Shown: positions 1 through 64,000 of the stretch, one piece after another
Layout of the letters: each line of letters begins with the position of its first letter
How positions within the stretch are numbered: position 1 is the first letter of the stretch
Sequence record: MK373794.1
DNA from: Escherichia phage vB_EcoS_HdK1
Length of the DNA: 64,000 nt
Reading direction: 5' to 3' (one strand)
Position numbers and translations under genes: made by a program
The notes under the pieces: generated by a model
What the model saw: the letters and a program-made list of their open reading frames with translations, nothing else
What the model was told of the DNA's origin: nothing
Database searches by the model: none

Positions 1-105
1 TTTATATAAATACACACATATACACATTTTTACCTTATTTTTCATGCACTTACCTCCTTTCATTTCGTATATTAAGCGACAATATACGAGCAATATAAGA
101 AATAT

Positions 106-119
106 TTGTTGCGCAACAA
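106..119. repeat. Perfect 14-bp palindrome TTGTTGCGCAACAA in the non-coding control region (second copy at 60798..60811)
   Basis: Read directly from the sequence; lies in the ~1.07-kb non-coding region spanning 60336..60692 and 1..678. Confidence 0.6.
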
Positions 120-617
120 CGAGGCGCTCACAAGCTCGCGCACGCGCATAATGCGGGCACGCGGTCTAACACAAAAGAAAATTGAATTGCAAGCGATTTT
201 TGCTGAGGTAACTCTCGAAGCGAAAGCGATTTGCGAGTTTGAAATTTTGTAGCCCGAAAACGATTCTATTTTATGGTATAAATGTCGGATTTTTCGGTGA
301 AAGGTGGCTTTTCGGTGAGGTTGGGTGGCTGGGATCGGTGTAACTGGTAGCCCATAAAGCGAAAATAGCCGCGAAAACGGGGCACGCAGCGCGATTAAAT
401 GGTTGGATCAGTGTAAGGGTGGCGGTGAGGGGGCGAAAATGCCGCAAAATCGCTTACAGGGATGCAGGGAGTGGGCCGCTGTAAGGGCGTATAAGGCGAT
501 TAAATTGGAGTCTATGGTAATGTATGGAAGATGGATTTAGGCTCTTAGAGCGCGAATGGTGGAGCTATGGGTGAGGAATATGTGGTCAGCAGGGTAGCGC
601 GGGAGGTTATGCAGGTA

Positions 618-660
618 CAAAAACGAAAGCGCCCCGTTGGACTTCAACAGGGCGCGGATT
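618..660 (-). terminator. Rho-independent terminator ending the leftward early operon
   Basis: GC-rich inverted repeat GCGCCC..GGGCGC directly downstream of the stop of the 679..927 gene; on the minus strand it is followed by a T-rich tract. Confidence 0.55.
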
Positions 661-678
661 GTATAATGCTTTTAGAAG

Positions 679-927
679 TTATTTACTAGTTAATAATACC
701 GCCCAGGTATTATCTGGAAGCGTACCAACTCCGAGTATCTTAAACTGAAGCGACTTGTTCTGCATGTTGTAGTTGTCGAGTAACTCCTGGGCAGCCGCAG
801 CAGCGTTCGCTTCACCGTTCAGGTTGTAGTCGTTTGCAGTTATTGCACACATACCGAGACCGACCGCTTTGAAGCGCATACCTTTGGATTGAGTCGGTGC
901 AAGTGCTTTAACATGGATAGCGTTCAT
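679..927 (-). CDS. Hypothetical early protein, 82 aa (paralog family A)
   Basis: ORF track; shares an AAAA(Q/E)EL..F(K/E)ILG/SGG..P(D)..(W/Y)A pattern with the 1458..1703 product. Confidence 0.5.
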   Translation of the reverse strand: MNAIHVKALAPTQSKGMRFKAVGLGMCAITANDYNLNGEANAAAAAQELLDNYNMQNKSLQFKILGVGTLPDNTWAVLLTSK

Positions 928-956
928 ATTATTTATCTCCGTTACAATTTGAAAGG

Positions 957-1220
957 TTAGCAGTTTTTTAACAGGTTGATGAAGCCCACCAGCGTGGACG
1001 CTGTTGCAACCAGGCGGCCCATAGTATGCAGTTCCGCGTAAACTTTACCGTCGTCAAACACAGTTAAATAAACGTTAAGACCATTGCAACGGACGCGATA
1101 TTTGCGCGAGTTATTACCAAAAGTTTCCAGCTCTGCGGTGATAGTCGCAAGATTAGCTATACGTTTGCCGATAATGCGGCGAGTGATAGTGGACTGGTTT
1201 AATACTGTAGACATAATCAT
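957..1220 (-). CDS. Hypothetical early protein, 87 aa (paralog family B)
   Basis: ORF track; N-terminal motif STITRRIIGKRI matches SQITKRIIGKRL of the 2529..2835 product; AGAGG ribosome-binding site upstream. Confidence 0.5.
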   Translation of the reverse strand: MIMSTVLNQSTITRRIIGKRIANLATITAELETFGNNSRKYRVRCNGLNVYLTVFDDGKVYAELHTMGRLVATASTLVGFINLLKNC

Positions 1221-1245
1221 TTCCTCTGTTAACTATGCGAAGTGC

Positions 1246-1274
1246 ATATTATTGCCCACTGTTACTATGGGCAA
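1246..1274 (-). promoter_or_regulatory. Sigma70-like promoter (minus strand: -35 TTGCCC, 17-bp spacer, -10 TAATAT) overlapped by an inverted repeat (candidate operator)
   Basis: Hexamers and spacing read from the reverse complement; inverted repeat TTGCCCA-N9-TGGGCAA at 1252..1274 covers the -35 box and spacer; lies 26 bp upstream of the 957..1220 start. Confidence 0.45.
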
Positions 1275-1282
1275 TGTATATG

Positions 1283-1447
1283 TCACTCAGCGGACACATA
1301 TTCTAACGCTTCTGATAGTGTAGCGAAGTAACCATCGCTCACCAGATTAATAGCGTACTCAAGTTGATCGCGGGTCAGGTTGCGAAACTTGTTACGGATG
1401 TGATAGCAACGACCGCGATAAATAACCTGGAAATAGTTGCGTTCCAT
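1283..1447 (-). CDS. Hypothetical small protein, 54 aa
   Basis: Internal ATG of the 1283..1603 track ORF preceded by AAGGGG; the longer track ORF would overlap the neighbouring gene. Confidence 0.4.
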   Translation of the reverse strand: MERNYFQVIYRGRCYHIRNKFRNLTRDQLEYAINLVSDGYFATLSEALEYVSAE

Positions 1448-1457
1448 AATTATCCCC

Positions 1458-1703
1458 TTATGCAACGATGAACGCGTAACCGCTTTGATCCGGGAGTTCA
1501 CCACCGGAAAGAATTTCAAACTCAACGCCCGCTTTATCGCTGAACTTTTTGATAAGCTCTTCCGCTGCGGCGCGGTGGTTGCCGTAAACACCAAGATCGT
1601 CACGCCACGTGATAGTCAAGGAGCCGTTCCAACCTGTTGCTTTTACGCGCGGGTTACGGGTGGCAGTCGGGTTCATGAATTTTGTGATGATAGCTTGAGC
1701 CAT
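1458..1703 (-). CDS. Hypothetical early protein, 81 aa (paralog family A)
   Basis: ORF track; paralogous to the 679..927 product. Confidence 0.5.
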   Translation of the reverse strand: MAQAIITKFMNPTATRNPRVKATGWNGSLTITWRDDLGVYGNHRAAAEELIKKFSDKAGVEFEILSGGELPDQSGYAFIVA

Positions 1704-1708
1704 GATAA

Positions 1709-1894
1709 TTACTCCGGTAAAATTACAGTGACGTTAATATTTGCAAGGCGAGCGCACTCGCGGAAACCTTTTACATAAGCATCCATTTCGTCATAGGATG
1801 CGAAAGTTGCGTCCGGGACTGGTCCGTTGTTAATATTCACGCAATATTCGTGTTCGTCCAGGTCAACCCAACAAGTCAGAACGATAGTTTCCAT
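1709..1894 (-). CDS. Hypothetical small protein, about 61 aa
   Basis: Internal ATG (METIVL..) preceded by GGAGGG; acidic, Cys-containing. Confidence 0.4.
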   Translation of the reverse strand: METIVLTCWVDLDEHEYCVNINNGPVPDATFASYDEMDAYVKGFRECARLANINVTVILPE

Positions 1895-1972
1895 ATTATT
1901 TGCCCTCCGTATAATACAGACCCGCAACTATTGGAGCTCCGAAAACTAAGAAAGCTAATAAATAGAACATAA

Positions 1973-2452
1973 TTAGTTACCCCCTTTATTGTTGAGCCCG
2001 TTGAATTTACGCCATGCGTAGAATTCAATCGTTGCATTATTAATATTCCAACCATTAGCTTTCGCAAGGTCACGGACGTTACCAATAGTTGGCACACCAT
2101 CAGGCAACATATTATCCAGGGCATTCCAAACGTCTGCGCATTTACCTTTAATCGGGCGACGAACCCCGTTGCGCGTTTCGCTGCGCGTTTTGCTCTTGGC
2201 TGGAGCGACCGGAGCTTGTTGTGTGGTCACTTCCACGACAGTCGCTTTATCAGCTTCCACCAGATCGCTAGCTGCCTTATTAACCGCGCTTTCGCTGTAC
2301 CAGTAGCGACCACCGTCTTCGTGCGGTTCCTGGTGAATAAAGCTATTTGCTGTCGCAGTGTCCACATCCAGAACCTTTTTTAAGGCACGGCGAGCGTTAG
2401 ACATAGTGGCGAAGAAGCGAGCGTCTTTTGCTACGCGAGTGATAGTAACCAT
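1973..2452 (-). CDS. Hypothetical early protein, about 159 aa
   Basis: ORF track; start placed at the ATG preceded by GGAGAT; no recognisable catalytic motif. Confidence 0.45.
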   Translation of the reverse strand: MVTITRVAKDARFFATMSNARRALKKVLDVDTATANSFIHQEPHEDGGRYWYSESAVNKAASDLVEADKATVVEVTTQQAPVAPAKSKTRSETRNGVRRPIKGKCADVWNALDNMLPDGVPTIGNVRDLAKANGWNINNATIEFYAWRKFNGLNNKGGN

Positions 2453-2492
2453 TGTGAATATCTCCATGTTGTTCTAGCGGATTGCTAGTGGG

Positions 2493-2513
2493 AGCCCACT
2501 GTTACAATGGGCA
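2493..2513. repeat. Second copy of the conserved inverted-repeat element GCCCACTGTTAC(A/T)ATGGGCAA
   Basis: Near-identical to 1252..1274; both sit in intergenic gaps between leftward early genes. Confidence 0.55.
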
Positions 2514-2528
2514 ACCATTAGCACGCTA

Positions 2529-2835
2529 TTATTGTTGAATAGCTTTATCTATCATTGCGATGAAGCAGAACACAGACCAAAGGCTATTCGCTTGGCATAC
2601 TGCGCGACCATACATTACGCTATAAGAGCTGACAGTACCGTCCTCGTTAATGCGAATATATAACGCGGTGCTGGAATACTTTTCGTTGCCCGGGAGCATT
2701 ACTAAATACTCGTCGAAACCCCAATCCCCGTCGACTTTTTCCGCAGTAAGGCCCAGTTGGTGCAGTCGCTTGCCAATAATGCGCTTAGTAATCTGAGATT
2801 GGGACATGGAACGCGGTAAGTAGATAATGGACATA
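2529..2835 (-). CDS. Hypothetical early protein, about 102 aa (paralog family B)
   Basis: ORF track; start placed at the ATG preceded by AAGGGAG; paralogous to the 957..1220 product. Confidence 0.5.
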
Positions 2836-2909
2836 ATGCAATCTCCCTTCGGGTGAGGCGGGCGCGGAACCCGTGTCCCGCTTAACAACCCCCTTAACCC
2901 TACACAGTT

Positions 2910-2938
2910 ATAGTATGACAACGGGGTATCAGATGCAA
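2910..2938 (-). promoter_or_regulatory. Sigma70-like early promoter for the leftward operon (minus strand: -35 TTGCAT, 17 bp, -10 TACTAT)
   Basis: Hexamers and spacing read from the reverse complement, about 75 bp upstream of the first leftward gene. Confidence 0.4.
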
Positions 2939-3014
2939 CTATTATCTGCAATATTTTAGAACTTTTTTAGTTGTGTTTCATAATAATAACATCCGGGACT
3001 ATGCGGTAGATGGT

Positions 3015-3088
3015 GTGCCGGAAATACCAGGTAGCGCGAGCGTGCCGAAAATACCAGGTAACAGCACGCGCCGAACATACCAGGTAGC
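3015..3088. repeat. Three tandem ~27-bp iteron-like repeats (core ATACCAGGTA) followed by an AT-rich tract; candidate origin or protein-binding array (second copy 63707..63780)
   Basis: GTGCCGGAAATACCAGGTAGC / GTGCCGAAAATACCAGGTAAC / CGCCGAACATACCAGGTAGC read directly; AT-rich stretch at about 3130..3230. Confidence 0.55.
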
Positions 3089-3476
3089 ACATACATAGAC
3101 AGCACATAGTGGGCAGGTGGATAGTAACAGATGCAATTATACTGGACGGTACAGTATAGTCATGTAATAGATAGCATACTAATTAAATAAAAAATAATAA
3201 CGCGTGTAACAATAAACAACGTTACAGTAGAGCGCGCAACAGTCACATGACGTAACAATCACCTCACTGACGATCACGGGACGTTATAGTAACGCCGCGG
3301 GGCGGCTCTTAGATCTCTGCCAAGGATTCTAGACGTAAACATTGAATCGCCACTAGACTATTTACATCACAACCTCACTCCTCACACAATAATACATAGA
3401 ATTTAAATCCGTATATAAATACTCGAGATAGTATCTACATATTCGAGGATGAGTGCTCAATCATTGTAGGTTATAA

Positions 3477-8699: not shown

Positions 8700-10266
8700 G
8701 GTAGTATGGAAACCACATCCAGGATCTCAGGTACTGGCACTGAGTTGTCCAGCGGATGAGATTTTATATCATGGTACTCGTGGCCCTGGAAAGACCGATG
8801 CCCAGTTGATGCGTTTTCGTCGTTATGTTGGCATGGGGTATGGTAAACACTGGCGCGGTATCATTTTTGACCGAGAATACAAAAACTTAGATGACTTAGT
8901 TGCAAAGTCACAGCGTTGGTTTCCTGAATTTAATGATGGTTGTAAATTCTTATCTTCCAAGTCAGATTATAAATGGGTATGGCCTAGCGGCGAAGAACTA
9001 ATGTTCCGTGTTGCTAAAAAGCCTAAGGATTACTGGCTGTACCACGGTCAGGAATTTCCATTTATTGGATGGAACGAATTAACTAAATATCCCGATAGTG
9101 GGCTTTATGAAGCAATGAAGTCTTGTAACCGTACATCCTTTGTTGCAGAAGAAAACCCGATAATTATTGACGGTGACGTGTATCAGAGAACTGGGCGTCT
9201 TGTGCTTGTTCAACCGGACCATGAATACGCAATGCAGTTCATACTACCACCTTTGCCGTTGCAGATCTTTTCTACGACTAACCCATTTGGGGTTGGACAT
9301 AACTGGGTCAAGAAATATTTTATTAACTCCTGTCCTCTTGGGTCCATGAAGAAGGAAGTAACAAACGTCTTCAACCCGCGTACACAGAAACGGGAAGACG
9401 TAGTTCGAACTCGCTGCCATATATTTGGTTCGTATCGAGAGAACCGCAACTTGACACCCGAGTATGTTGCGCAGCTTGTAAACATTGACGATCCTAACCT
9501 CCGTATGGCATGGCTCGGTGGTAGCTGGGATATTACGTCAGGTGGAATGTTCGACGACCTGTGGCGCCAGAATATACATGTGGTCAAACCATTTCCAATA
9601 CCTCACTCCTGGAGAATTGATAGATCATTTGACTGGGGCTCAAGTAAACCGTTTTCTGTCGGTTGGTGGGCAAGAAGTGATGGTAGCGATATCGTGTATC
9701 CAAATGGGCGTCGTGTACGAACAGTACGAGGTGACTTATTTAGGATCATGGAGTGGTATGGTACTAACGGGAAACCGAACGAAGGTTTAAGATTATTGGA
9801 TTCTGAAATTGCTCGTGGTATCATCGTCAGGGAAATTGAAGCTGGTTTATACGGTCGCGTAGTTCCAGGCCCTGCTGATAACAGCATTTGGGACGTTAAG
9901 GATGGTAACAGTACCGCAGCAACAATGTCTAAACCAATAACCATCAATGGTCGGTCTTATCCAGGTGTACAGTGGATTCGAAGTGATAAATCTCCTGGAT
10001 CTCGTAAAGCAGGTTGGAAACGAATGCGGGAATATTTAGCTGCTTCAATTCCGGATCCTAAGGTTGCCGCTTTACGTGAAAGACCTTCTATGTTTATTTT
10101 TGACAACTGTCATCACTTTATAGATCTTGTTCCAACTCTTGCCAGAGACGAAGATGATCTTGATGATGTCGATACTGATTCTGAAGACCACATTGCTGAC
10201 GAAGCTCGTTATCGCGTAGCCAACGAAGCACGTGGCGGTAGTATCGGTAAGACTGTGGGGACATAA
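8668..10266 (+). CDS. terL: Terminase large subunit
   Basis: 532 aa; N-terminal ATPase region with HGTRGPGKTD Walker A-like motif; C-terminal nuclease-type acidic residues; synteny with portal. Confidence 0.85.
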   Translation: MDSMIQTPSTKVVWKPHPGSQVLALSCPADEILYHGTRGPGKTDAQLMRFRRYVGMGYGKHWRGIIFDREYKNLDDLVAKSQRWFPEFNDGCKFLSSKSDYKWVWPSGEELMFRVAKKPKDYWLYHGQEFPFIGWNELTKYPDSGLYEAMKSCNRTSFVAEENPIIIDGDVYQRTGRLVLVQPDHEYAMQFILPPLPLQIFSTTNPFGVGHNWVKKYFINSCPLGSMKKEVTNVFNPRTQKREDVVRTRCHIFGSYRENRNLTPEYVAQLVNIDDPNLRMAWLGGSWDITSGGMFDDLWRQNIHVVKPFPIPHSWRIDRSFDWGSSKPFSVGWWARSDGSDIVYPNGRRVRTVRGDLFRIMEWYGTNGKPNEGLRLLDSEIARGIIVREIEAGLYGRVVPGPADNSIWDVKDGNSTAATMSKPITINGRSYPGVQWIRSDKSPGSRKAGWKRMREYLAASIPDPKVAALRERPSMFIFDNCHHFIDLVPTLARDEDDLDDVDTDSEDHIADEARYRVANEARGGSIGKTVGT

Positions 10267-17404: not shown

Positions 17405-18586
17405 ATGGCTGAAGGTTCACGTTATAGTAGCTATTACATCAAAGAACAGACCTCCGGTGTCACTCCGTCTAGCGGAACTCTGAAGGTCTTTCGTGCTACT
17501 AAATCGGGTCTTGATATTAAAGTCGCTACTCTGCAATCTGAAGAAATTCGAGATGACGCGGAAGTGGCGGATTTCCGTCTTGGTGCTCGTCACGTAGAAG
17601 GTACAGCAACGGGTGAATTGTCTTATGAGACATTTGACGACCTGTTGGGTGGTGCATTACGTGGTACGTTTGCGGGAGAAGCGTTGACCGCAAGTATCGA
17701 GCGCCAATCTTTTACCTTTATTGACTATAACGCAGATATTCCGGATTTCCCGTATACCATCTATCGTGGTTGTGAAGTTAACAGTCTTGCAATTACTGTA
17801 AGTGCTGAAGCTATCACCAGCGTGGAATTCGGTATCGTTGGTCGTACAATGGAACAGGCTGCTACCCTGCCGTCTGGTCTAAGTAAAGGTACTCGTACGA
17901 CTACGTCACCTATGGATGGCTTCTCTGGTAAGCTAACTATGGGCGATGTGTCTGTTGATGTTATCACTGAGATGGCTATTAACATTGAGAACGGCATCGA
18001 GCCTCGTTTCGTTGTTGGTTCCAAGTTCTCTATCAAGCCAAGCTCTAAACGTCGTCAGATCAGTGGTACACTGACCGCCTACTACGAAGATAACAAACTG
18101 CGTAGTAAATTCCTGAACGAACAGGAAAGCGACCTAACTATCGACATCCTGGACGGAACTACTGGTGCTGGTTATCGTTTCAGTATGCCTCGTATCAAGA
18201 TTACGGAAGCTCCGCGTCCGATCGATGGTGAAGGCGATATCATGCTGAACATGAGTTATACTGGTCTGTTGGACCAAGACGAAGGTTACAGCATTCGTAT
18301 TACTAAACTTCCTCCGATGTCTTTCACGACCGATCTTACAGGAAACAAGACTATCACTAAAGGACAAACACTAACCCTTTCAGTTGTGGTCAAAGGTGGC
18401 GAAGAACCTTATACCTATGTATGGAAGAAAGGTGGTGTTGTTATTCCGGAAGCTAAACAAGCGACATACACTAAATCTAACGCACAAGAGGTGGATGCCG
18501 GTCAGTATGTATGTGAAGTAACAGATTCACATGGTCGTACTATACCGAGCACACCTTGCCTTGTTGCTGTTAATCCTGGTGAGTGA
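17405..18586 (+). CDS. Major tail protein with C-terminal Ig-like domain
   Basis: 393 aa; position upstream of the chaperone pair and tape measure; C-terminal Ig-like pattern (..YTYVWKKGGVVIPEAKQATY..GQYVCEVTDSHG..); followed by a terminator. Confidence 0.7.
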   Translation: MAEGSRYSSYYIKEQTSGVTPSSGTLKVFRATKSGLDIKVATLQSEEIRDDAEVADFRLGARHVEGTATGELSYETFDDLLGGALRGTFAGEALTASIERQSFTFIDYNADIPDFPYTIYRGCEVNSLAITVSAEAITSVEFGIVGRTMEQAATLPSGLSKGTRTTTSPMDGFSGKLTMGDVSVDVITEMAINIENGIEPRFVVGSKFSIKPSSKRRQISGTLTAYYEDNKLRSKFLNEQESDLTIDILDGTTGAGYRFSMPRIKITEAPRPIDGEGDIMLNMSYTGLLDQDEGYSIRITKLPPMSFTTDLTGNKTITKGQTLTLSVVVKGGEEPYTYVWKKGGVVIPEAKQATYTKSNAQEVDAGQYVCEVTDSHGRTIPSTPCLVAVNPGE

Positions 18587-18591
18587 TTGGA

Positions 18592-18613
18592 ACGGGGTGC
18601 AAACCCCGTTTTA
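18592..18613 (+). terminator. Terminator-like hairpin after the major tail gene
   Basis: CGGGG..CCCCG stem followed by TTTT. Confidence 0.55.
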
Positions 18614-18626
18614 TTAAGGAACGATT

Positions 18627-19055
18627 ATGTCTTCAGAAAACAAACAAGTATCCACTGAAGTTGCAAAGAAAGCTGTTGGTACATCTTTCCGTGACTTTAA
18701 CTTGAAAAAGAAATTAGAGAACGCTCCGCTGCTGCATTACCCGCTTGTTTTTCCAGGACAGGGCGATACAGGTCACTGGTTGAAAATTCGCAACCGCCAC
18801 AGCGAAGAATTTCGTCAAGCAGATTTAAAAGCACAACGTCAGATCAGTGCGCTTGTCGTTGCCAACGGATCTTTTGAAAAGATTGATAAGGACATGCTCG
18901 ACGATATCAATATGCGAGCGTTCTGTAAGTTGGTTGCTTCGTGGAGCTTCGAAGAAGAATGCAACGAAGACAATCTTCTTGAATTCTTTGATAATAACCC
19001 GTTTGCGTATGACGACATCAACCGTCTGGCAGCGCAAGATTCCCTTTTTTTCTAA
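18627..19055 (+). CDS. Tail assembly chaperone (G-like)
   Basis: 142-aa acidic protein between major tail and tape measure genes; ends at a slippery T TTT TTC heptamer. Confidence 0.65.
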   Translation: MSSENKQVSTEVAKKAVGTSFRDFNLKKKLENAPLLHYPLVFPGQGDTGHWLKIRNRHSEEFRQADLKAQRQISALVVANGSFEKIDKDMLDDINMRAFCKLVASWSFEEECNEDNLLEFFDNNPFAYDDINRLAAQDSLFF

Positions 19056-19447
19056 GATCCCGCGAAAAGCTAATTGATCACTTACTGCTCGAATGGCAAT
19101 TGCACAGTTGCCCGCCGGGCAGTAAGACTCCAACAATTAAACATCTCCAGCACGTTAAAAAAGTCACTGGTAAGACTCCCTCCTTACTAGCAAAGTACGA
19201 ATCCAGCTCCGTACCACACGAACTCAGATACATTTACAAGTTATTTCTTGACTTTTATAATGGTGATAAATTCAGTTACAGCGAATTTAACGCCTGGCAA
19301 GATTATATAGGTGTAGAACTTGATTTCAGAGAGCGTGAACTAATTCGGGCCAGATTTGTCTTGAACGGCAAGCATTTGATATTAGGCGTCAACAAGAACT
19401 TATGCAACACGCTCAGACCAATAATAAAGGAGGTAAATAATGGCTGA
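19046..19447 (+). CDS. -1 frameshift extension of the tail assembly chaperone (GT-like fusion product)
   Basis: The -1 frame is open from 19013 through the chaperone stop to 19447; slippery heptamer T TTT TTC at 19046..19052; the extension overlaps the tape measure start. Confidence 0.5.
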   Translation, partial: FFLRSREKLIDHLLLEWQLHSCPPGSKTPTIKHLQHVKKVTGKTPSLLAKYESSSVPHELRYIYKLFLDFYNGDKFSYSEFNAWQDYIGVELDFRERELIRARFVLNGKHLILGVNKNLCNTLRPIIKEVNNG

Positions 19448-22400
19448 TGCAGCTGACATCGTCATTAGAGTCCGTGCTGAAGGTATTCAGAATGCTGAAA
19501 CAGCACTGCGACGCTTGCAAGCGGCAGGTGTAAGAGTTGAGACTGTCAGCTCGCGTATGGAGAATGGTTTTCACCGTGCGGCTACAAGTGCTGACGCGTT
19601 CCATCATGCCATTAGTGCAATCTATACGGTAATGACTGTAACCACACTGACATCCTACGTCGGTGGGCTTGCTAAGTTATCGGATGCGTGGCTGGACGTT
19701 ACTAACAAACTGGCTAACGCCAACTCTGCAAACGAGCAGATGGTTGATATTCAAGAGCGAGTATTTGGTATCGCTCAAAGAACTCGTACGAGCCTGGAAG
19801 CTACGTCAACTCTTTATGCTCGTATGGAACGTTCACTGAACCAGTACGGTGTGACTGGTAAACAGGTCGCTCAGATCACTGAAACAATTAACAAGGCAAT
19901 GATTGTTTCTGGTGCAACCACTGCGGAATCCACTGCTGCTATTATCCAGTTCTCACAGGGTCTGCAATCTGGTGTGTTACGTGGGGACGAATTCCGTTCT
20001 GTAATGGAACAAGCTCCTCGTCTTGGTAAGATGATTGCAGATGGTCTTGGTGTTGGTACTGCTGGTCTACGCCAGATGGCTAACACTGGACAATTAACCG
20101 CTGATGTTGTTATTAACTCCATCTCTAAAGCTGCATCAACTATTGACGATGAGTTTAATCGTACAATACCAACGTTCTCTCAGCGAATGGAGATTGCGAA
20201 TAACAACTTAATTAAATTCGCGGGGAACGTCAACCTCGGTACAAACTGTGGTCAATTCAATGGGTGCTGTCATTGAAACTGCTACAGACCACCTCACCTT
20301 GCTGTCTAATGTCGCAATCGGTGTTGCTGCTATTGTTGGCGGTCGAATGATTACTGCACTGGCTGCACAGATTGCGGCATTCATAAAGCTCAACGCGATA
20401 CAAGCAAGTAGCTCGGCCATAAACATTAAGACTATTGATGGTATCACAAGATCCGCAGTAGCTCGATATAATGAAGCACAAGCAACGTTAGCACAGGTTG
20501 CAGCCGAGCGCACCAAGATTCAGGCAGCATTGCAAGCCAACCAAACGTATTATAAAGGTATAGCGACACTCAACGCATACATGCAGAATACGCGGCAGGT
20601 GCGCGAAGCTACGGAAGCGGTTGCTATTGCCCAGACTACCATGCAGGCGCGTATGTCTGCCGCGACCGTAGCGTCCCGTGTGCTTACTGTCACCATGACA
20701 GGACTGCGGACGGTAATGGGCTTGATGGGTGGACCTGTAGGTGTGGTCACATTGGCTGCTGCCGCATGGTTCATGTGGAGTCAAAATAGCAAACAAGCTG
20801 TCCAGGATGCACAGAACCTTGCTTCCTCCCAAGAAGATTTAAAGAACAAGTTAAAAGAAACAACTCTTGAACAGCAACGAGCTCTTAGTGTTCAGTTGCA
20901 ACGTGCCGCTATTACGTTGGACGAACAGATTGCCTCTGAAAACAGGGAGTTGGCTGAATTAAAGAACCGTCTTAGCACAGTAACGCGCTATCAAGCTGAA
21001 GCAACTGAAGGAACAAGCGAGTATAACCGACTCACTAAAGACCGTAAGGAATTAGAAGGTGATGTCGCTATTAAGATTGGTGAAATATCCACTCTTGAGC
21101 AAAAAGCACAACAGATTAAATCTAATTTAACGACTGTACTGAACAATTTAACTGCTGCTGTAATGGGTCACACCGATGCACTCAAAGCAGAAAACGAGCA
21201 GTTATCTATTAATATCAGTTCTGCTGCCGGTCGTTCGAAGGAGCTAGTTAGTGCAATCCAAGCTCAGAATAATGAGCTCGATGTTGCTCAATTGAAGATG
21301 TCTGGTCATGCACGACAAGCAAGCATCTTAAAAGATGCTCAGACAGCTCTTGGTAAGAAGTATAAAGAAAACGAATCGTTCATCCAAGAATTATATTAGC
21401 GGTCACGCTGACGCAACTGCTGTATTAACGGATGAGCAACGAGGACTGGTTGAATTTATCAACTTGTCTGGAAAGAACTATGACGCTCAGAAGAAGATCC
21501 ATGAACAGCAAGAAAAAGAACGTCAGAGTAAGAAAGACAATAAAGCTGCCATACGCTATGCTGAACAATGGGATAAAGCATATGAACGCGTAGAAGCGCG
21601 TGGTGCTACTGGTTTACAGCGTCTTAACTTACAGCAAGAAGCTGAAGTTCGTGCTATTCGTGATAAAGCTGAACGAGCTAAAGCATCTGAAGAAGAATTA
21701 CAGAATGCCTTACTGGCTATTCAACGTAAGTACGATCTGAAACGTGCAGAACTGGCAGAGCAGTACAAGCCAGGCGTTGCAATGGTGCGTGCGTACAAAG
21801 AAGCCCAGCAAGAAATAAATCAGTTGCTTGAAGCTGGTTTATTGACAGAGCAACAGGCATATACGGCTAGATTGAATTTGCAGGCGGATTATTATACAAA
21901 ACGTGCGCAAATGCAATCTGAATTGAACCCCGCTGGACAAGCTGCTGATCAAGAAGCTGCTGAACTTGCAACACTTAAATCCCAGTATGAAACAGCGATT
22001 GAATTAGCTACTGGTAAGGAAGAGCAACTAACCGCTATCAAAGAGAACTATGAGCGCATACGACACGACATTCAGTTGAAGTACGCTCAGAAGCAGATGC
22101 TCGCACAGAACCAGACGGCAATGGCTTACATTGAAAGTCTGAGCTCTATGGCTGGATCAATGACCACAATTATGGCGGCTGCTGGCGATGATGCTAGTGG
22201 TGCTTACAGGGTTATGTTCGCACTGTCTAAATCGTTCAGTATTGCTCAGTCGATGTTAAGTATTACTACCGCACTGTCGCAGGTGTTAGCAGATCCGACA
22301 GCATTGACACCGATGCAAAAGATGGCCAACTACGCGACTATTGCAGCCGCTGGTGCTAACATTATTTCGACATTATCCAGTGTCGCCCTTACTGGTATGG

Positions 22401-22702
22401 CTCACGATGGTATAGCCAACGTTCCAGAAGAGGGTACGTGGCTTCTGAATAAAGGTGAACGAGTTCTTAGTCCCCAACAGAACGCGGACTTTACTAACTT
22501 TATGAAGGGTCAATCAAATACTGGCAATAATTCGGGTGGGGGTGTTATCATTAACCAGAACTTTAACATCCAGGGTAATGGTGATGCAGCTTTGAAAAGC
22601 GCAGTTCAACAAGCTGCGAGAGATGGCGCCCAGCAAGGTTATAACATGGTACTCCAAGACTTTGCTAACCGTGGATCAATTAGAAAATTAGCGTTGGGGT
22701 AA
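19440..22702 (+). CDS. Tape measure protein, fragmented into three frames by apparent frameshifts near 20240 and 21390
   Basis: Three contiguous track ORFs (19440..20276, 20248..21399, 21335..22702), all Ala/Gln-rich and helical; about 1087 aa combined, located between chaperone and distal tail genes. Confidence 0.75.
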
Positions 22703-54636: not shown

Positions 54637-57201
54637 ATAACTTAATAACTTCGTTCATTCTCTCAATATCTACCAAATAACACTTCATTCTCGGTGGTGT
54701 AAACTCTGCGCCGAAGAAATTTGAAAAGTCCATTGGCCTCATCTCGGTAAGAACTTCCATAGACATCAAACCATAGATTGTATTGTCTATGACCTGTAGG
54801 ATGTTGTCATTTCTTGTCTGTTTAAAAGCCTTGAACTGGCGACATACTGTGCATAGATCACTCCTTGTGACAATAAATGCGTCCTTAAACATGGGAAACC
54901 GTTTATATACACCAGCTTTAACTTCACCATCCAAGAACTTCTTAATGGAGTTCAGCATTATCTTCTCACGACTTGTACTGTCCGTAGAACCAATCTGCCC
55001 ACTGTTACGCTTCTCTAAGAAACGCTCGTTACCCTGATCGATAAATGACTCAGCCCAACGATAATGTTCCATAGTGACAACAGGACGCTCACTGTTATCT
55101 GCAACAGCAAGAAGAGAAGCTATACGCAATACCTTCAACGCCTTCCTTGTGTACATCTGACGAATTACTTCGTCTTGCACCTGCTCACCATCATTGCCGC
55201 TGTTCAGGAACTTCGCAACAATATTATCAAGATTATCAAACGCTTCGTGTACCTCTGCTTCCATTTCAACATAACACGGAGCAGTCCCTGACATAATACG
55301 CACAGCTTGTTTATAGATAGCTCCAATAGTGCGCAGTATTGCTTCTGGATATTCCAGGAGCATACTCTTATTCATCAATGGGCGGTTAGCTGTACATTCC
55401 CATGCGATAATACGGGACATGAAACCACTCGACATCATGCGGTCATCTACGTTCCCGTAAAATTCATCTGGTGTTGTTTCACCTGCAAAACTATACGCCT
55501 TAACCTTACCGCCAGCAGTCGTATTATCTTTACTAGAGTGCTTTGAACCACCAGAGAAAGCATAGAAATGCCCCTTGTCATAAAGGGAAAGCATTTCATC
55601 CATAATGTCTTTAGCTTTACCGACTTCCATCTTACCGTTACGGAAAAAATGCACCGACTTCAGTCTTATAGTTAATGGATGAGCCACAAGACATAACGGA
55701 CGTATCCATTATGACATCCTTGCGCAATGCAGCATCAGACGCATAGGTACTTGTATCCAAGACACGTTCGATACCAAATATCTGCTGACCGTCTTGACCG
55801 CCATAATTGGATACTTGAGAAAAAAAAGAATAGTTTCAATGTTGGAGCGAAACGCTTCTTTACCAATACCAGAACGTGCAATTAGTACAAAGTAGTTATT
55901 CAAACCACTTCGTGTGACTGTGTTCCACGCCTTACCGCACATACCACTAAATAAAGCAAGCGCAGACAGAATACTAATGTCTTTAATAGGCAACAAGCTC
56001 GCTTTATACATATTACGCGCAACCTCGCCCATAAAGCCCGGAGGCCAAGCCAAACCGTCTGCCTGCTCTTCAGTGTAATTACCATCTGTAGTCAACACTT
56101 CTTCAGGTGGGCGTTCTGGTGTAGTTGCTTGACGTAGTTTTTCCGTGCGCTCTATAGCTGCATTAACGTTATTCTGAACTATCTGCATAAGTCCCATAGA
56201 TTTAACATGGGCATCGTAGCGATAGTTGCGAATCATTCTATCCAGGTGGTACGGACGTTTAATTTTTTCACCAGGCATACGACGGGGAATCATCGTAACG
56301 GCTACTCATTGGTGAATACATGAATAGACGTCTTACCTGGAAATTGTACTTACTCTTAAAGCAAAGAAAGTCAATTAATGCAAATTCTGCTTCAGACTGA
56401 GAAGGGAAACAACGTTCACCGATTAGAAGTATCAACTTCTTCAGCTCTCCAACGACCCTCCCATAGCTGCTTAAACAATGTTCCGTTTTCTTGTTCGCAC
56501 AACTGAATATAGACATCCTGGTCTTCCATTGCATATGGGTCGTTACTAAAATCTTCTTCAGTAAGTTCCAGCATTTGGAAGCCATCAGACTCATTAATCT
56601 CACTCATCTCAGACATAAGTTGGATGAATGAGATTAGCGATATACCCTTCGCTTTCACTGCCTGGAGCACCAGACACAGTGCGCGGGAGTAAAGTAACAT
56701 CCCAGTGATCCCCTGTACAGATAATAAAACGATACTGGGAATACACTTCCACACCGTCACGGCGCTTACCAGCCTGAGGGGATGGAATAAATCCATGTGT
56801 GCAACCCATCACCGCTTCTGGAAATTTCCGTATAGCTATGGAAACGATTCAACAATCTTCTTATATCGCTCACCAGCAACTTTCTTTTCCATTTCAGACA
56901 TGGTATCTTTAATGTCCATGTCGATACAACAGAACGGGTCACTTGGAAGTAGATAGAAACCTAAACGCAAGTTATGACCAATCTCGTTATAATAACGAAC
57001 GCAGCGTTCAGCATCTTCAAAAGACATAAGTAAATGCAGGTTAGACGGTTTCTTATCATTACCGTCTTTACGAAGTGGGACCATATCCCCTAAATCATCG
57101 TCCCATACATAAGGTTGTTTTTCTGATGATGTACCCGGATGGAAACCGCAGACAGCCCACTGTTCGTATTGTTTAATTTCTTGAGGAAAAAGTTCCAGCA
57201 T
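54635..57201 (-). CDS. Putative bifunctional DNA primase-polymerase (AEP-type N-terminal domain plus C-terminal domain), fragmented into at least five ORFs by apparent frameshifts
   Basis: Track ORFs 54635..55687, 55709..56293, 56416..56796 and 56836..57201 plus alternate-frame readings form one continuous coding region; AEP-like motifs CIDMD and RSGDGLH; frame changes at plus-strand A6 (55645..55650) and A8 (55821..55828) runs. Confidence 0.45.
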
Positions 57202-60545: not shown

Positions 60546-61309
60546 CAGCAATATACGAAACGGCGAAGCGAAGTGTATGAAAAATAAGGGAAAATTTCGA
60601 GAGTTGGGAGGTTTGTAGTGATTTATATTATTTATAAAGGGGTCTCGTGGGGTCGTCAGTAGACAACTCAAAAATAAAAAATCTTTATAAAATTTATATA
60701 AATACACACATATACACATTTTTACCTTATTTTTCATGCACTTACCTCCTTTCATTTCGTATATTAAGCGACAATATACGAGCAATATAAGAAATATTTG
60801 TTGCGCAACAACGAGGCGCTCACAAGCTCGCGCACGCGCATAATGCGGGCACGCGGTCTAACACAAAAGAAAATTGAATTGCAAGCGATTTTTGCTGAGG
60901 TAACTCTCGAAGCGAAAGCGATTTGCGAGTTTGAAATTTTGTAGCCCGAAAACGATTCTATTTTATGGTATAAATGTCGGATTTTTCGGTGAAAGGTGGC
61001 TTTTCGGTGAGGTTGGGTGGCTGGGATCGGTGTAACTGGTAGCCCATAAAGCGAAAATAGCCGCGAAAACGGGGCACGCAGCGCGATTAAATGGTTGGAT
61101 CAGTGTAAGGGTGGCGGTGAGGGGGCGAAAATGCCGCAAAATCGCTTACAGGGATGCAGGGAGTGGGCCGCTGTAAGGGCGTATAAGGCGATTAAATTGG
61201 AGTCTATGGTAATGTATGGAAGATGGATTTAGGCTCTTAGAGCGCGAATGGTGGAGCTATGGGTGAGGAATATGTGGTCAGCAGGGTAGCGCGGGAGGTT
61301 ATGCAGGTA

Positions 61310-61352
61310 CAAAAACGAAAGCGCCCCGTTGGACTTCAACAGGGCGCGGATT
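61310..61352 (-). terminator. Second copy of the early-operon terminator (same as 618..660)
   Basis: Within the terminal duplication. Confidence 0.55.
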
Positions 61353-61370
61353 GTATAATGCTTTTAGAAG

Positions 61371-61619
61371 TTATTTACTAGTTAATAATACCGCCCAGGT
61401 ATTATCTGGAAGCGTACCAACTCCGAGTATCTTAAACTGAAGCGACTTGTTCTGCATGTTGTAGTTGTCGAGTAACTCCTGGGCAGCCGCAGCAGCGTTC
61501 GCTTCACCGTTCAGGTTGTAGTCGTTTGCAGTTATTGCACACATACCGAGACCGACCGCTTTGAAGCGCATACCTTTGGATTGAGTCGGTGCAAGTGCTT
61601 TAACATGGATAGCGTTCAT
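61371..61619 (-). CDS. Duplicate of the 679..927 gene (paralog family A)
   Basis: Identical translation in the ORF track. Confidence 0.5.
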   Translation of the reverse strand: MNAIHVKALAPTQSKGMRFKAVGLGMCAITANDYNLNGEANAAAAAQELLDNYNMQNKSLQFKILGVGTLPDNTWAVLLTSK

Positions 61620-61648
61620 ATTATTTATCTCCGTTACAATTTGAAAGG

Positions 61649-61912
61649 TTAGCAGTTTTTTAACAGGTTGATGAAGCCCACCAGCGTGGACGCTGTTGCA
61701 ACCAGGCGGCCCATAGTATGCAGTTCCGCGTAAACTTTACCGTCGTCAAACACAGTTAAATAAACGTTAAGACCATTGCAACGGACGCGATATTTGCGCG
61801 AGTTATTACCAAAAGTTTCCAGCTCTGCGGTGATAGTCGCAAGATTAGCTATACGTTTGCCGATAATGCGGCGAGTGATAGTGGACTGGTTTAATACTGT
61901 AGACATAATCAT
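61649..61912 (-). CDS. Duplicate of the 957..1220 gene (paralog family B)
   Basis: Identical translation in the ORF track. Confidence 0.5.
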   Translation of the reverse strand: MIMSTVLNQSTITRRIIGKRIANLATITAELETFGNNSRKYRVRCNGLNVYLTVFDDGKVYAELHTMGRLVATASTLVGFINLLKNC

Positions 61913-61974
61913 TTCCTCTGTTAACTATGCGAAGTGCATATTATTGCCCACTGTTACTATGGGCAATGTATATG

Positions 61975-62139
61975 TCACTCAGCGGACACATATTCTAACG
62001 CTTCTGATAGTGTAGCGAAGTAACCATCGCTCACCAGATTAATAGCGTACTCAAGTTGATCGCGGGTCAGGTTGCGAAACTTGTTACGGATGTGATAGCA
62101 ACGACCGCGATAAATAACCTGGAAATAGTTGCGTTCCAT
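61975..62139 (-). CDS. Duplicate of the 1283..1447 gene
   Basis: Within the terminal duplication. Confidence 0.4.
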   Translation of the reverse strand: MERNYFQVIYRGRCYHIRNKFRNLTRDQLEYAINLVSDGYFATLSEALEYVSAE

Positions 62140-62149
62140 AATTATCCCC

Positions 62150-62395
62150 TTATGCAACGATGAACGCGTAACCGCTTTGATCCGGGAGTTCACCACCGGA
62201 AAGAATTTCAAACTCAACGCCCGCTTTATCGCTGAACTTTTTGATAAGCTCTTCCGCTGCGGCGCGGTGGTTGCCGTAAACACCAAGATCGTCACGCCAC
62301 GTGATAGTCAAGGAGCCGTTCCAACCTGTTGCTTTTACGCGCGGGTTACGGGTGGCAGTCGGGTTCATGAATTTTGTGATGATAGCTTGAGCCAT
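62150..62395 (-). CDS. Duplicate of the 1458..1703 gene
   Basis: Identical translation in the ORF track. Confidence 0.5.
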   Translation of the reverse strand: MAQAIITKFMNPTATRNPRVKATGWNGSLTITWRDDLGVYGNHRAAAEELIKKFSDKAGVEFEILSGGELPDQSGYAFIVA

Positions 62396-62400
62396 GATAA

Positions 62401-62586
62401 TTACTCCGGTAAAATTACAGTGACGTTAATATTTGCAAGGCGAGCGCACTCGCGGAAACCTTTTACATAAGCATCCATTTCGTCATAGGATGCGAAAGTT
62501 GCGTCCGGGACTGGTCCGTTGTTAATATTCACGCAATATTCGTGTTCGTCCAGGTCAACCCAACAAGTCAGAACGATAGTTTCCAT
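62401..62586 (-). CDS. Duplicate of the 1709..1894 gene
   Basis: Within the terminal duplication. Confidence 0.4.
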   Translation of the reverse strand: METIVLTCWVDLDEHEYCVNINNGPVPDATFASYDEMDAYVKGFRECARLANINVTVILPE

Positions 62587-62664
62587 ATTATTTGCCCTCC
62601 GTATAATACAGACCCGCAACTATTGGAGCTCCGAAAACTAAGAAAGCTAATAAATAGAACATAA

Positions 62665-63144
62665 TTAGTTACCCCCTTTATTGTTGAGCCCGTTGAATTT
62701 ACGCCATGCGTAGAATTCAATCGTTGCATTATTAATATTCCAACCATTAGCTTTCGCAAGGTCACGGACGTTACCAATAGTTGGCACACCATCAGGCAAC
62801 ATATTATCCAGGGCATTCCAAACGTCTGCGCATTTACCTTTAATCGGGCGACGAACCCCGTTGCGCGTTTCGCTGCGCGTTTTGCTCTTGGCTGGAGCGA
62901 CCGGAGCTTGTTGTGTGGTCACTTCCACGACAGTCGCTTTATCAGCTTCCACCAGATCGCTAGCTGCCTTATTAACCGCGCTTTCGCTGTACCAGTAGCG
63001 ACCACCGTCTTCGTGCGGTTCCTGGTGAATAAAGCTATTTGCTGTCGCAGTGTCCACATCCAGAACCTTTTTTAAGGCACGGCGAGCGTTAGACATAGTG
63101 GCGAAGAAGCGAGCGTCTTTTGCTACGCGAGTGATAGTAACCAT
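62665..63144 (-). CDS. Duplicate of the 1973..2452 gene
   Basis: Identical translation in the ORF track. Confidence 0.45.
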   Translation of the reverse strand: MVTITRVAKDARFFATMSNARRALKKVLDVDTATANSFIHQEPHEDGGRYWYSESAVNKAASDLVEADKATVVEVTTQQAPVAPAKSKTRSETRNGVRRPIKGKCADVWNALDNMLPDGVPTIGNVRDLAKANGWNINNATIEFYAWRKFNGLNNKGGN

Positions 63145-63220
63145 TGTGAATATCTCCATGTTGTTCTAGCGGATTGCTAGTGGGAGCCCACTGTTACAAT
63201 GGGCAACCATTAGCACGCTA

Positions 63221-63527
63221 TTATTGTTGAATAGCTTTATCTATCATTGCGATGAAGCAGAACACAGACCAAAGGCTATTCGCTTGGCATACTGCGCGAC
63301 CATACATTACGCTATAAGAGCTGACAGTACCGTCCTCGTTAATGCGAATATATAACGCGGTGCTGGAATACTTTTCGTTGCCCGGGAGCATTACTAAATA
63401 CTCGTCGAAACCCCAATCCCCGTCGACTTTTTCCGCAGTAAGGCCCAGTTGGTGCAGTCGCTTGCCAATAATGCGCTTAGTAATCTGAGATTGGGACATG
63501 GAACGCGGTAAGTAGATAATGGACATA
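63221..63527 (-). CDS. Duplicate of the 2529..2835 gene
   Basis: Identical translation in the ORF track. Confidence 0.5.
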
Positions 63528-63706
63528 ATGCAATCTCCCTTCGGGTGAGGCGGGCGCGGAACCCGTGTCCCGCTTAACAACCCCCTTAACCCTACACAGT
63601 TATAGTATGACAACGGGGTATCAGATGCAACTATTATCTGCAATATTTTAGAACTTTTTTAGTTGTGTTTCATAATAATAACATCCGGGACTATGCGGTA
63701 GATGGT

Positions 63707-63780
63707 GTGCCGGAAATACCAGGTAGCGCGAGCGTGCCGAAAATACCAGGTAACAGCACGCGCCGAACATACCAGGTAGC
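63707..63780. repeat. Second copy of the three tandem iteron-like repeats (same as 3015..3088)
   Basis: Within the terminal duplication. Confidence 0.55.
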
Positions 63781-64000
63781 ACATACATAGACAGCACATA
63801 GTGGGCAGGTGGATAGTAACAGATGCAATTATACTGGACGGTACAGTATAGTCATGTAATAGATAGCATACTAATTAAATAAAAAATAATAACGCGTGTA
63901 ACAATAAACAACGTTACAGTAGAGCGCGCAACAGTCACATGACGTAACAATCACCTCACTGACGATCACGGGACGTTATAGTAACGCCGCGGGGCGGCTC

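Follow-up and report, generated by a model that had tools for sequence, protein, structure and literature searches.

Does the short gene upstream of the tape measure gene in Escherichia phage vB_EcoS_HdK1 make one protein or two? In the 64,000 nt stretch of record MK373794.1 that we analysed as a whole (the window), this gene ends at a run of Ts abutting its stop codon, and the −1 frame is open from before this end to beyond the tape measure start. The original prediction attributed this arrangement to the programmed −1 ribosomal frameshift of a G/GT-type tail assembly chaperone gene. Our analysis supports this reading: judging from the phase of the slippery heptamer, its conservation in the family, the match of the fused product to phrog_569 in one stretch and the PF23812 domain behind the slip site, the chaperone gene of this 9g-like (Nonagvirus) siphophage very probably undergoes programmed −1 ribosomal frameshifting. 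The genes around the site are as follows.

17405..18586, + strand: gene of the major tail tube protein with a C-terminal Ig-like domain, the upstream neighbour of G
18591..18615, + strand: terminator-like hairpin AACGGGG-TGCAAA-CCCCGTT, then TTATT, read from the sequence between the tube and chaperone genes
18627..19055, + strand: ORF of the G-like tail assembly chaperone, the zero-frame product of 142 aa and 16.4 kDa, assigned by PHROG matches
19052..19447, + strand: T part, as it would be read in the −1 frame after the slip, assigned by Pfam PF23812, phrog_569 and gap-free alignment from the slip site
19349..19350, + strand: private GC insertion, missing in the 16 relatives compared
19427..19433, + strand: Shine-Dalgarno sequence AAGGAGG serving the tape measure ATG at 19440
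19440..22702, + strand: tape measure protein gene, the downstream neighbour, present as three ORFs in the window

A 5.4-kb query around the slip site found full-length matches in 17 records of Nonagvirus, the 9g-like coliphages of the Queuovirinae, the closest of which was JenK1 (98.7%); by this identity MK373794.1 is a Nonagvirus (9g/JenK1-like coliphage) genome. Positions 1..3308 are the same as 60693..64000, and the window is thus longer than the genome and wraps a sequence of approximately 60,692 bp. Compared with JenK1, the window carries many insertions of 1–2 nt within genes, most of which lengthen the adjacent base. Single-base insertions at 20222 and 21384 break the tape measure gene into its three ORFs. 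Because of the private GC at 19349–19350, the T part falls out of register with the family over its final 32 codons: the conserved T tail ...ELIRQICLERQAF... is exchanged for unrelated residues, and the Pfam and PHROG matches of the T part as read in the window are shortened. These insertions are probably sequencing or assembly errors. Where the GC is lacking, as in the 16 relatives, the −1 ORF ends in TAATG and overlaps the tape measure ATG by 1 nt. Unlike these insertion-bearing positions nearby, the slip site of the window is identical to that of the relatives.

The chaperone pair lies between the major tail and tape measure genes, as originally claimed, and both neighbours were assigned by Pfam and PHROG profiles. 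The tube protein matched Phage_tube_2 (1.3e-41) together with Ig_3, Ig_2 and I-set in Pfam, and phrog_290 (2.8e-99); the intact JenK1 homologue of the tape measure protein, 1086 aa in length, matched TMP_3 (8.1e-57) and phrog_339 (8.6e-198). The HdSG1 record has a putative terminator annotated at the place equivalent to 18591..18615, and a scan for consensus terminators made no call for this hairpin. The chaperone ORF, which is preceded by the Shine-Dalgarno sequence AAGGA, matched phrog_569 (1.9e-30) and phrog_313, described as 'Tail assembly chaperone' (2.1e-14). Its score against Pfam Phage_TAC_4 (PF08748) was 16.9 bits, below the cut-off of 21.1, and 10 of 11 family members matched the same profile with a best E-value of 2.8e-5. 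Alignment profiles of G and T compared with PDB sequences gave noise only (E ≥0.01).

The 3′ end of the chaperone gene holds two adjoining elements.

19046..19052, + strand: slippery heptamer T_TTT_TTC in X_XXY_YYZ phase, formed by the last T of CTT and the codons TTT and TTC
19053..19055, + strand: zero-frame stop TAA directly adjoining the heptamer, a candidate 'shifty stop' read from the sequence

The G ORF occupies the frame in which position modulo 3 is 0 and ends ...GAT TCC CTT TTT TTC TAA, so that the gene ends at T TTT TTC just as predicted, in phase and with TAA immediately 3′. The −1 frame (position modulo 3 of 2) is closed by TGA at 19010..19012, open from 19013, and ends with TGA at 19445..19447; the predicted overlap with the tape measure start amounts to 8 nt with the ATG at 19440.

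The T7 run at 19045..19051 is the only run of seven or more Ts in the genome, where approximately 5.7 would be expected, and TTTTTTC is also rarer than expected, with 8 occurrences on the two strands of the window vs 17.4. In a scan of the genome for look-alikes, the 126 stop-to-stop ORFs with 100 codons or more contained 66 X_XXY_YYZ heptamers in phase. Just two of these have a −1 frame open for at least 100 codons beyond the zero-frame stop, and the second, G_GGA_AAC at 9769, was dropped as lying in a spurious frame over the real terminase frame. Among real genes, the site at 19046 is therefore alone in having a −1 frame that reaches at least 100 codons past the stop, and the slippery motif at 19046 is not a chance occurrence.

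The two frames belong to one protein family. The conceptual G–T fusion comprises 273 aa as read in the window and 270 aa (31.6 kDa) when the private GC is removed. The T part matched PF23812 (Phage_TAC_18) with 51.7 bits, and with 59.2 bits in JenK1, against a gathering cut-off of 27. Profile phrog_569 covers G with its positions 5–125 and the −1 part with positions 160–249, and residues 1–267 of the GC-corrected fusion align to positions 5–249 of its 256 in a single stretch (E 9.8e-43), the score rising from 107.6 bits for G alone to 147.8 bits for the fusion. Since the fusion aligns in one stretch, the phrog_569 family profile is itself that of a G–T fusion. The alignment of the T part with its relatives begins at the slip site and is gap-free onward.

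Would the downstream frame instead be translated on its own, as a separate gene without any fusion? This is how seven Nonagvirus records, among them JenK1, 9g, BRET and HdSG1, are annotated, with a separate 'hypothetical protein' starting at a TTG that falls within an RNA hairpin.

19081..19126, + strand: RNA hairpin with stems of 11 bp and 7 bp separated by a 3x3 internal loop, and a terminal loop of 4 nt, starting at +29, 28 nt 3′ of the heptamer
19100..19102, + strand: TTG in the inner stem of this hairpin, the annotated start of the 'hypothetical protein' in relatives

From 19013 to 19250, the −1 frame has no start codon other than this TTG at 19100, which is sequestered by the hairpin (about −26 kcal/mol) and has no Shine-Dalgarno sequence in the 20 nt upstream of it, acttactgctcgaatggcaa. 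An independent start with its own ribosome-binding site, the exclusive use of which, with no fusion product, the original prediction had named as evidence against itself, was sought, and a structured TTG is all that the frame offers. Moreover, the stretch from the slip site to the TTG, 16 codons long (LRSREKLIDHLLLEWQ), aligns without gaps to all relatives and is conserved as protein across clades. In 14 Nonagvirus haplotypes, the 48 nt before the TTG contain three variable sites, all of which are synonymous in the −1 frame and amino-acid-changing in both other frames. The annotated starts of other clades are placed elsewhere, and the family profile phrog_569 is a fusion. The TTG is probably not a real start, and translation of two separate genes is very improbable.

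The wider family was compared with regard to the slip site, as the original prediction had proposed for homologous chaperone pairs. The in-phase heptamer was retained in 15 of 15 GenBank relatives, comprising nine Queuovirinae records and six distant phages. T_TTT_TTC followed immediately by TAA or TAG was found in all Nonagvirus records and in K9PH25C2, Seurat, STP-SP5 and yong3, the G proteins of which are 57% (Klebsiella phage K9PH25C2) or 42–46% (the other three) identical to that of the window. In EC151 the slip site consists of T_TTT_TTA overlapped by T_TTA_AAG. Phages of the Seurat type have a TAA in the −1 frame immediately 5′ of the heptamer, and the shift would therefore be possible only at the heptamer. 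The six distant homologues (26–36% identity), from phages of Providencia, Pseudomonas, Xanthomonas, Vibrio and Stenotrophomonas, retain T_TTT_TTC in phase with the zero-frame stop 18–93 nt further downstream, and several of these loci are GC-rich.

We also scanned IMG/VR with the G alignment and obtained 80 related metagenomic loci, down to approximately 25% identity. A slippery heptamer was found in phase at the homologous spot in 78 of them; 67 loci carry T_TTT_TTC with at least 80 open −1 codons after it, and the others have T_TTT_TTA/T_TTA_AAG (three), T_TTT_TTT (two), A_AAA_AAG (five, one at a contig end) or A_AAA_AAA (one), with only a degraded motif in the remaining 2/80. All 43 distinct T-type contexts have a codon ending in T (for L, R, A, V, N, Y or H) just before the heptamer. 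In the five distinct A-type contexts the site is displaced by 2–3 codons and still lies in X_XXY_YYZ phase. Where FF gives way to KK, the new site is always another in-phase slippery heptamer, which indicates that selection acts on the ability to slip and not on the peptide. The homologous pairs thus keep the heptamer and the two-frame layout, and only other slippery heptamers replace it; by these alignments the frameshift site is strongly conserved in the chaperone family (PHROG 569/313). An arrangement that had come about by chance, a slippery-looking run beside an open frame with no recoding, would accord with the low intrinsic efficiency of the heptamer and with nothing else that we found. 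The family-wide conservation, the invariance of the third base and the uniqueness of the site in the genome speak against it, and we consider it scarcely credible.

The same comparison bears on transcriptional slippage, in which RNA polymerase would add an extra U on the T7 run at 19045..19051 and translation of the resulting U8 mRNAs would give the same fusion. The protein product would be identical, and no variant of the slip site in the family has fewer than six As or Ts in a row. These runs are short, however, with seven Ts in Nonagvirus and six in the Seurat and Vibrio types. Productive sites of bacterial transcriptional slippage are usually 8–9 nt or longer. The run is always placed in X_XXY_YYZ phase, even in the displaced A-type sites, although phase is irrelevant to the polymerase; its final base is nearly always the one that is efficient on the ribosome (C after U6 and G after A6); and T_TTA_AAG of the EC151 type is not homopolymeric but a motif for ribosomal slipping. 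We regard slippage by the polymerase as improbable, and return to the −1 shift by the ribosome.

Most ribosomes would read 18627..19052 and stop at the TAA to yield the 142-aa G, and a minority would slip one base back on U_UUU_UUC, where tRNA-Phe in the P site (UUU) and in the A site (UUC) would re-pair to UUU UUU. In E. coli, one tRNA-Phe (anticodon GAA) reads both UUU and UUC, so that re-pairing in the P and A sites after a −1 slip would be fully cognate. Alternatively, the slip may take place while the ribosome waits at the adjoining stop. Decoding would then run CUA AGA UCC... and produce a G–T fusion of approximately 270 aa, ...AQDSLFF-LRSREKLIDH.... If the two products act as gpG and gpGT of lambda do, the tape measure protein would be coated by G together with the G portion of GT, and the T portion would bring in the tube protein. 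We infer the slip itself at 19046, its rate and its function; the anatomy of the site, its conservation and the chaperone homology of both halves are direct observations. On the other side of the balance we counted the weakness of the unstimulated heptamer, the lack of a canonical stimulator, the homopolymeric nature of the run and the score of G under the Phage_TAC_4 cut-off.

Frameshifting has been described in this genus before. Kulikov et al. (2014, Viruses 6:5077, PMC4276943) reported G and T of phage 9g (Nonagvirus nv9g) as nested genes with a programmed frameshift at the Sanger-confirmed motif 5′-CCCUUUUUUU. Phage 9g shares with the window the nucleotides of the slip site, including the CCCUUUUUUU motif, and the nested G/T between the tube and tape measure genes; it differs in that the GenBank record has two ORFs instead of a joined CDS, and the private GC insertion near the end of T occurs in the window alone. 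According to that paper, the motif 'programs a -2 translational frameshift' (PMC4276943), but the sequence requires −1. The deposited T ORF of 9g is offset from G by 2 modulo 3, which is the −1 frame, at a site identical to that of the window, and the −2 (= +1) frame stops after eight codons (...LFFSKIPRKAN*). The −2 direction of the 9g paper is ruled out by this frame arithmetic on the deposited sequence, and a −2 shift on CCCUUUUUUU is left with almost no probability.

In the Seurat record (KM236243, Seuratvirus), the 'tape measure chaperone' is annotated as a joined CDS and marked 'ribosomal slippage'. Its G is 45% identical to that of the window, and the locus likewise has T_TTT_TTC, an adjoining stop, a T frame in −1 and a hairpin about 29 nt downstream; it differs in having AAT TTT TTC with six Ts, the −1-frame stop just before the heptamer, and hairpin arms of another sequence and register. 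The EC151 paper makes no mention of a frameshift, the Seurat announcement names the chaperone only, and a literature search on Nonagvirus and frameshift returned unrelated papers only. None of the seven Nonagvirus records inspected has a joined chaperone CDS annotated.

The frameshift is therefore of the ordinary G/GT type, already published for the genus and not new, and the remaining interest lies in the correction of annotation and direction, the wide invariance of T_TTT_TTC and the unexplained distant hairpin. The main value concerns annotation, since in at least seven public records of Nonagvirus the chaperone is divided between G and an unrelated 'hypothetical protein' from an implausible TTG, and the sole paper noting the frameshift gives it the wrong direction, −2. 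A corrected joined CDS (G of 142 aa and GT of 270 aa, with −1 at T_TTT_TTC) can be transferred to the entire genus, and the invariant heptamer can be used to annotate PHROG 569/313 chaperones in phages of Enterobacteria, Pseudomonas, Xanthomonas, Stenotrophomonas and Vibrio.

The gpG/gpGT pair of lambda has reportedly been studied by Levin et al. 1993 and by Xu et al. 2004, 2013 and 2014, work that PMC5009743 summarises. The locus resembles it in gene position, in yielding two products through a −1 slip close to where G ends, in the lack of a canonical downstream stimulator and in the presumed role in tape measure coating and tube protein recruitment, membership of the family being assigned here through Pfam Phage_TAC_18 and the PHROGs. 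In lambda the slip takes place on G_GGA_AAG, with tRNA-Lys occupying the A site, whereas U_UUU_UUC would be read here with tRNA-Phe in both sites and a stop adjacent. In lambda, both G and GT are needed for tail assembly and are missing from virions (PMC5009743). The G/GT criteria of Xu, Hendrix and Duda (2004) find their counterparts at this locus in the position of the genes, the −1 overlap without a credible start, the in-phase slippery site and its conservation.

What could raise the slip to a useful rate? In E. coli reporters, U_UUU_UUC without a stimulator gives 0.121% frameshifting against a background of approximately 0.055%, which increases to 0.89% with the IS911 stimulators and to 7.6% with the IS3 pseudoknot. 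When a stimulator is present, this heptamer is one of the efficient H_HH.U_UU.Y class, and some IS elements use it (PMC4066793). The GT level in lambda is a few percent of G, approximately 1:30 (PMC5009743). As the heptamer alone yields only about 0.12%, a lambda-like ratio of a few percent would need help. The signals of dnaX and IS3/IS911 likewise consist of an X_XXY_YYZ heptamer read by E. coli ribosomes, but they rely on an upstream Shine-Dalgarno-like element and/or a hairpin or pseudoknot 5–9 nt downstream, neither of which is found at such distances here. The sequence 5′ of the heptamer, ctggcagcgcaagattcc, contains none of GGAG, AGGA and GAGG, and the 20 nt upstream show no Shine-Dalgarno-like element of the dnaX/IS3 type, for which a distance of 6–17 nt 5′ of the heptamer was the criterion. 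No stable hairpin or pseudoknot starts 5–9 nt 3′ of the heptamer at 19046, and the segment from +5 to +44 is unusually unstructured (−2.2 to −3.3 kcal/mol, 81st–90th percentile of local segments). Nor did hairpins at +5 to +9 stand out across the wider family, where about a quarter of loci fell below the 10th percentile and the distribution was indistinguishable from uniform (KS p = 0.10). An Rfam scan of 18500..19600 gave sub-threshold noise only, such as RF01098 with 17.4 bits against a gathering threshold of 70, on the wrong strand and elsewhere.

A stimulator is likely; candidates for it are the stop codon that adjoins the heptamer and, as a less conventional choice, the hairpin 28 nt downstream. 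An arrangement of 'slippery run plus shifty stop' was reportedly described by Weiss et al. 1987, and the abutting TAA here resembles such an arrangement. From the weak U_UUU_UUC, a useful G:GT ratio would have to be reached with the help of an adjoining stop and a remote hairpin only, a minor mechanistic point that is open to testing.

The hairpin at 19081..19126 has a minimum free energy of −29.1 kcal/mol (z −4.0 to −4.3), and synonymous recodings of its peptide folded as well in 9 of 1000 cases. For the analogous segments of the relatives, the counts per 1000 were 0 in Seurat, 11 in STP-SP5, 22 in K9PH25C2 and 61–63 in yong3 and EC151. In Nonagvirus contexts, the hairpin region falls in the lowest ≤1% of the 50-nt segments of its locus, and in all seven distinct Queuovirinae contexts the segment +28..+77 falls in the lowest ≤5% of its own locus; its median in 49 other contexts was the 60th percentile. 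Analogous hairpins are located in K9PH25C2, EC151 and the Seurat group, and the G–U pairs on the sense strand, together with arms that differ between clades, point to an RNA structure. RNAalifold on a codon-level alignment of eight Queuovirinae sequences returned no consensus hairpin, and counting pairs in a fixed register gave 65.6% of cells paired vs 63.0% in shuffles, 129 of 500 shuffles being as high. With 3′ arms whose register varies between clades, neither test gave significant covariation of homologous pairs. From these comparisons, we treat the hairpin as a real structure, conserved at the level of position only.

With the zero-frame stop directly behind the slip site, a ribosome would have to shift first in order to get as far as the hairpin. 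That the distant hairpin is a functional part of the recoding signal, at a non-canonical distance, is conceivable but doubtful. In one hypothesis, a ribosome pausing at the stem entry, with its A site about nine codons beyond the heptamer, would stimulate the trailing ribosome; a stalled leading ribosome at a spacing of approximately nine codons stimulates −1 slipping of the trailing one (Smith et al. 2019, PMC6815119). Equally plausibly, the hairpin may protect the T region, which few ribosomes would translate, against internal initiation at the TTG, decay or Rho. If true, either of these roles would make the combination of a shifty stop and a distant hairpin an undescribed variant of the G/GT signal.

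The slip site at the 3′ end of chaperone gene G is followed on the sense strand by a strong RNA hairpin.

19081..19126, sense strand: strong RNA hairpin, 28 nt 3′ of the slip site

Analogous hairpins of different sequence occupy the same position in K9PH25C2, EC151 and Seurat-type phages of the sister Queuovirinae clades; fixed-register covariation was not demonstrated for the 19081..19126 hairpin and these analogues. The canonical spacing of a stimulator is 5-8 nt after the heptamer, and a hairpin starts at this distance in several distant members of the chaperone family among the IMG/VR and GenBank relatives (L016, L037, L042, L065, L066, L072, L086 and L092), all of which have a zero-frame stop 33-93 nt beyond the heptamer. 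Across the family overall, the trend toward a hairpin at the canonical spacing was not significant (KS p = 0.10). Different clades of the chaperone family may use different stimulators.

In two family members, L097 and L100, the homologous position holds no canonical heptamer, with ...GTTTTTC... in one and ...TATTTCG... in the other, and both still have the long -1 T frame. These loci may use a U_UUC tetramer or contain sequence errors. As for the direction of the shift, the CCCUUUUUUU motif was said to program a -2 frameshift in phage 9g (PMC4276943). In the sequence deposited for 9g itself, the T ORF lies in the -1 frame (L101, KJ419279, 1228..2039), with which the -2 statement, read against this record, is in conflict.

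Putative transcription signals were found on either side of the slip site.

18591..18615, + strand: terminator-like hairpin in the gap separating the tube and chaperone genes; T tail weak
19233..19261, + strand: promoter-like site TTTACA-17 nt-TATAAT (11/12 matches), within the T reading frame and upstream of the tape measure gene

A putative terminator is annotated at the equivalent place in the HdSG1 record, and the terminator-like hairpin could hold expression of the chaperone and tape measure genes below that of the tube protein. The promoter-like site may act as an internal promoter, or it may match by chance.

In the window, the tape measure gene (19440..22702) falls into three ORFs, 19440..20276, 20248..21399 and 21335..22702, on account of single-base insertions at 20222 and 21384. 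It is a single 1086-aa ORF in JenK1, FritzHoffmann and ESCO3, which lack these insertions. Compared with JenK1, coding regions across the window carry dozens of insertions of 1-2 nt.

13462, 14038, 14786, 15074, 15750, 28137, 31554: example insertion sites versus JenK1
31770, 37441, 39481, 41640, 42719, 44088, 56284: further example sites

As the insertions mostly duplicate the neighbouring base, they suggest a homopolymer-type sequencing error profile, and caution is due for ORF calls anywhere in the window. The sole A run of at least 7 nt in the genome, A8 at 55820..55827, falls where the window has 5 extra A compared with JenK1, which makes its length suspect. Positions 1..3308 and 60693..64000 of the window are 100% identical; therefore, the window wraps a genome of ~60,692 bp, which it represents in circularly permuted or concatenated form.
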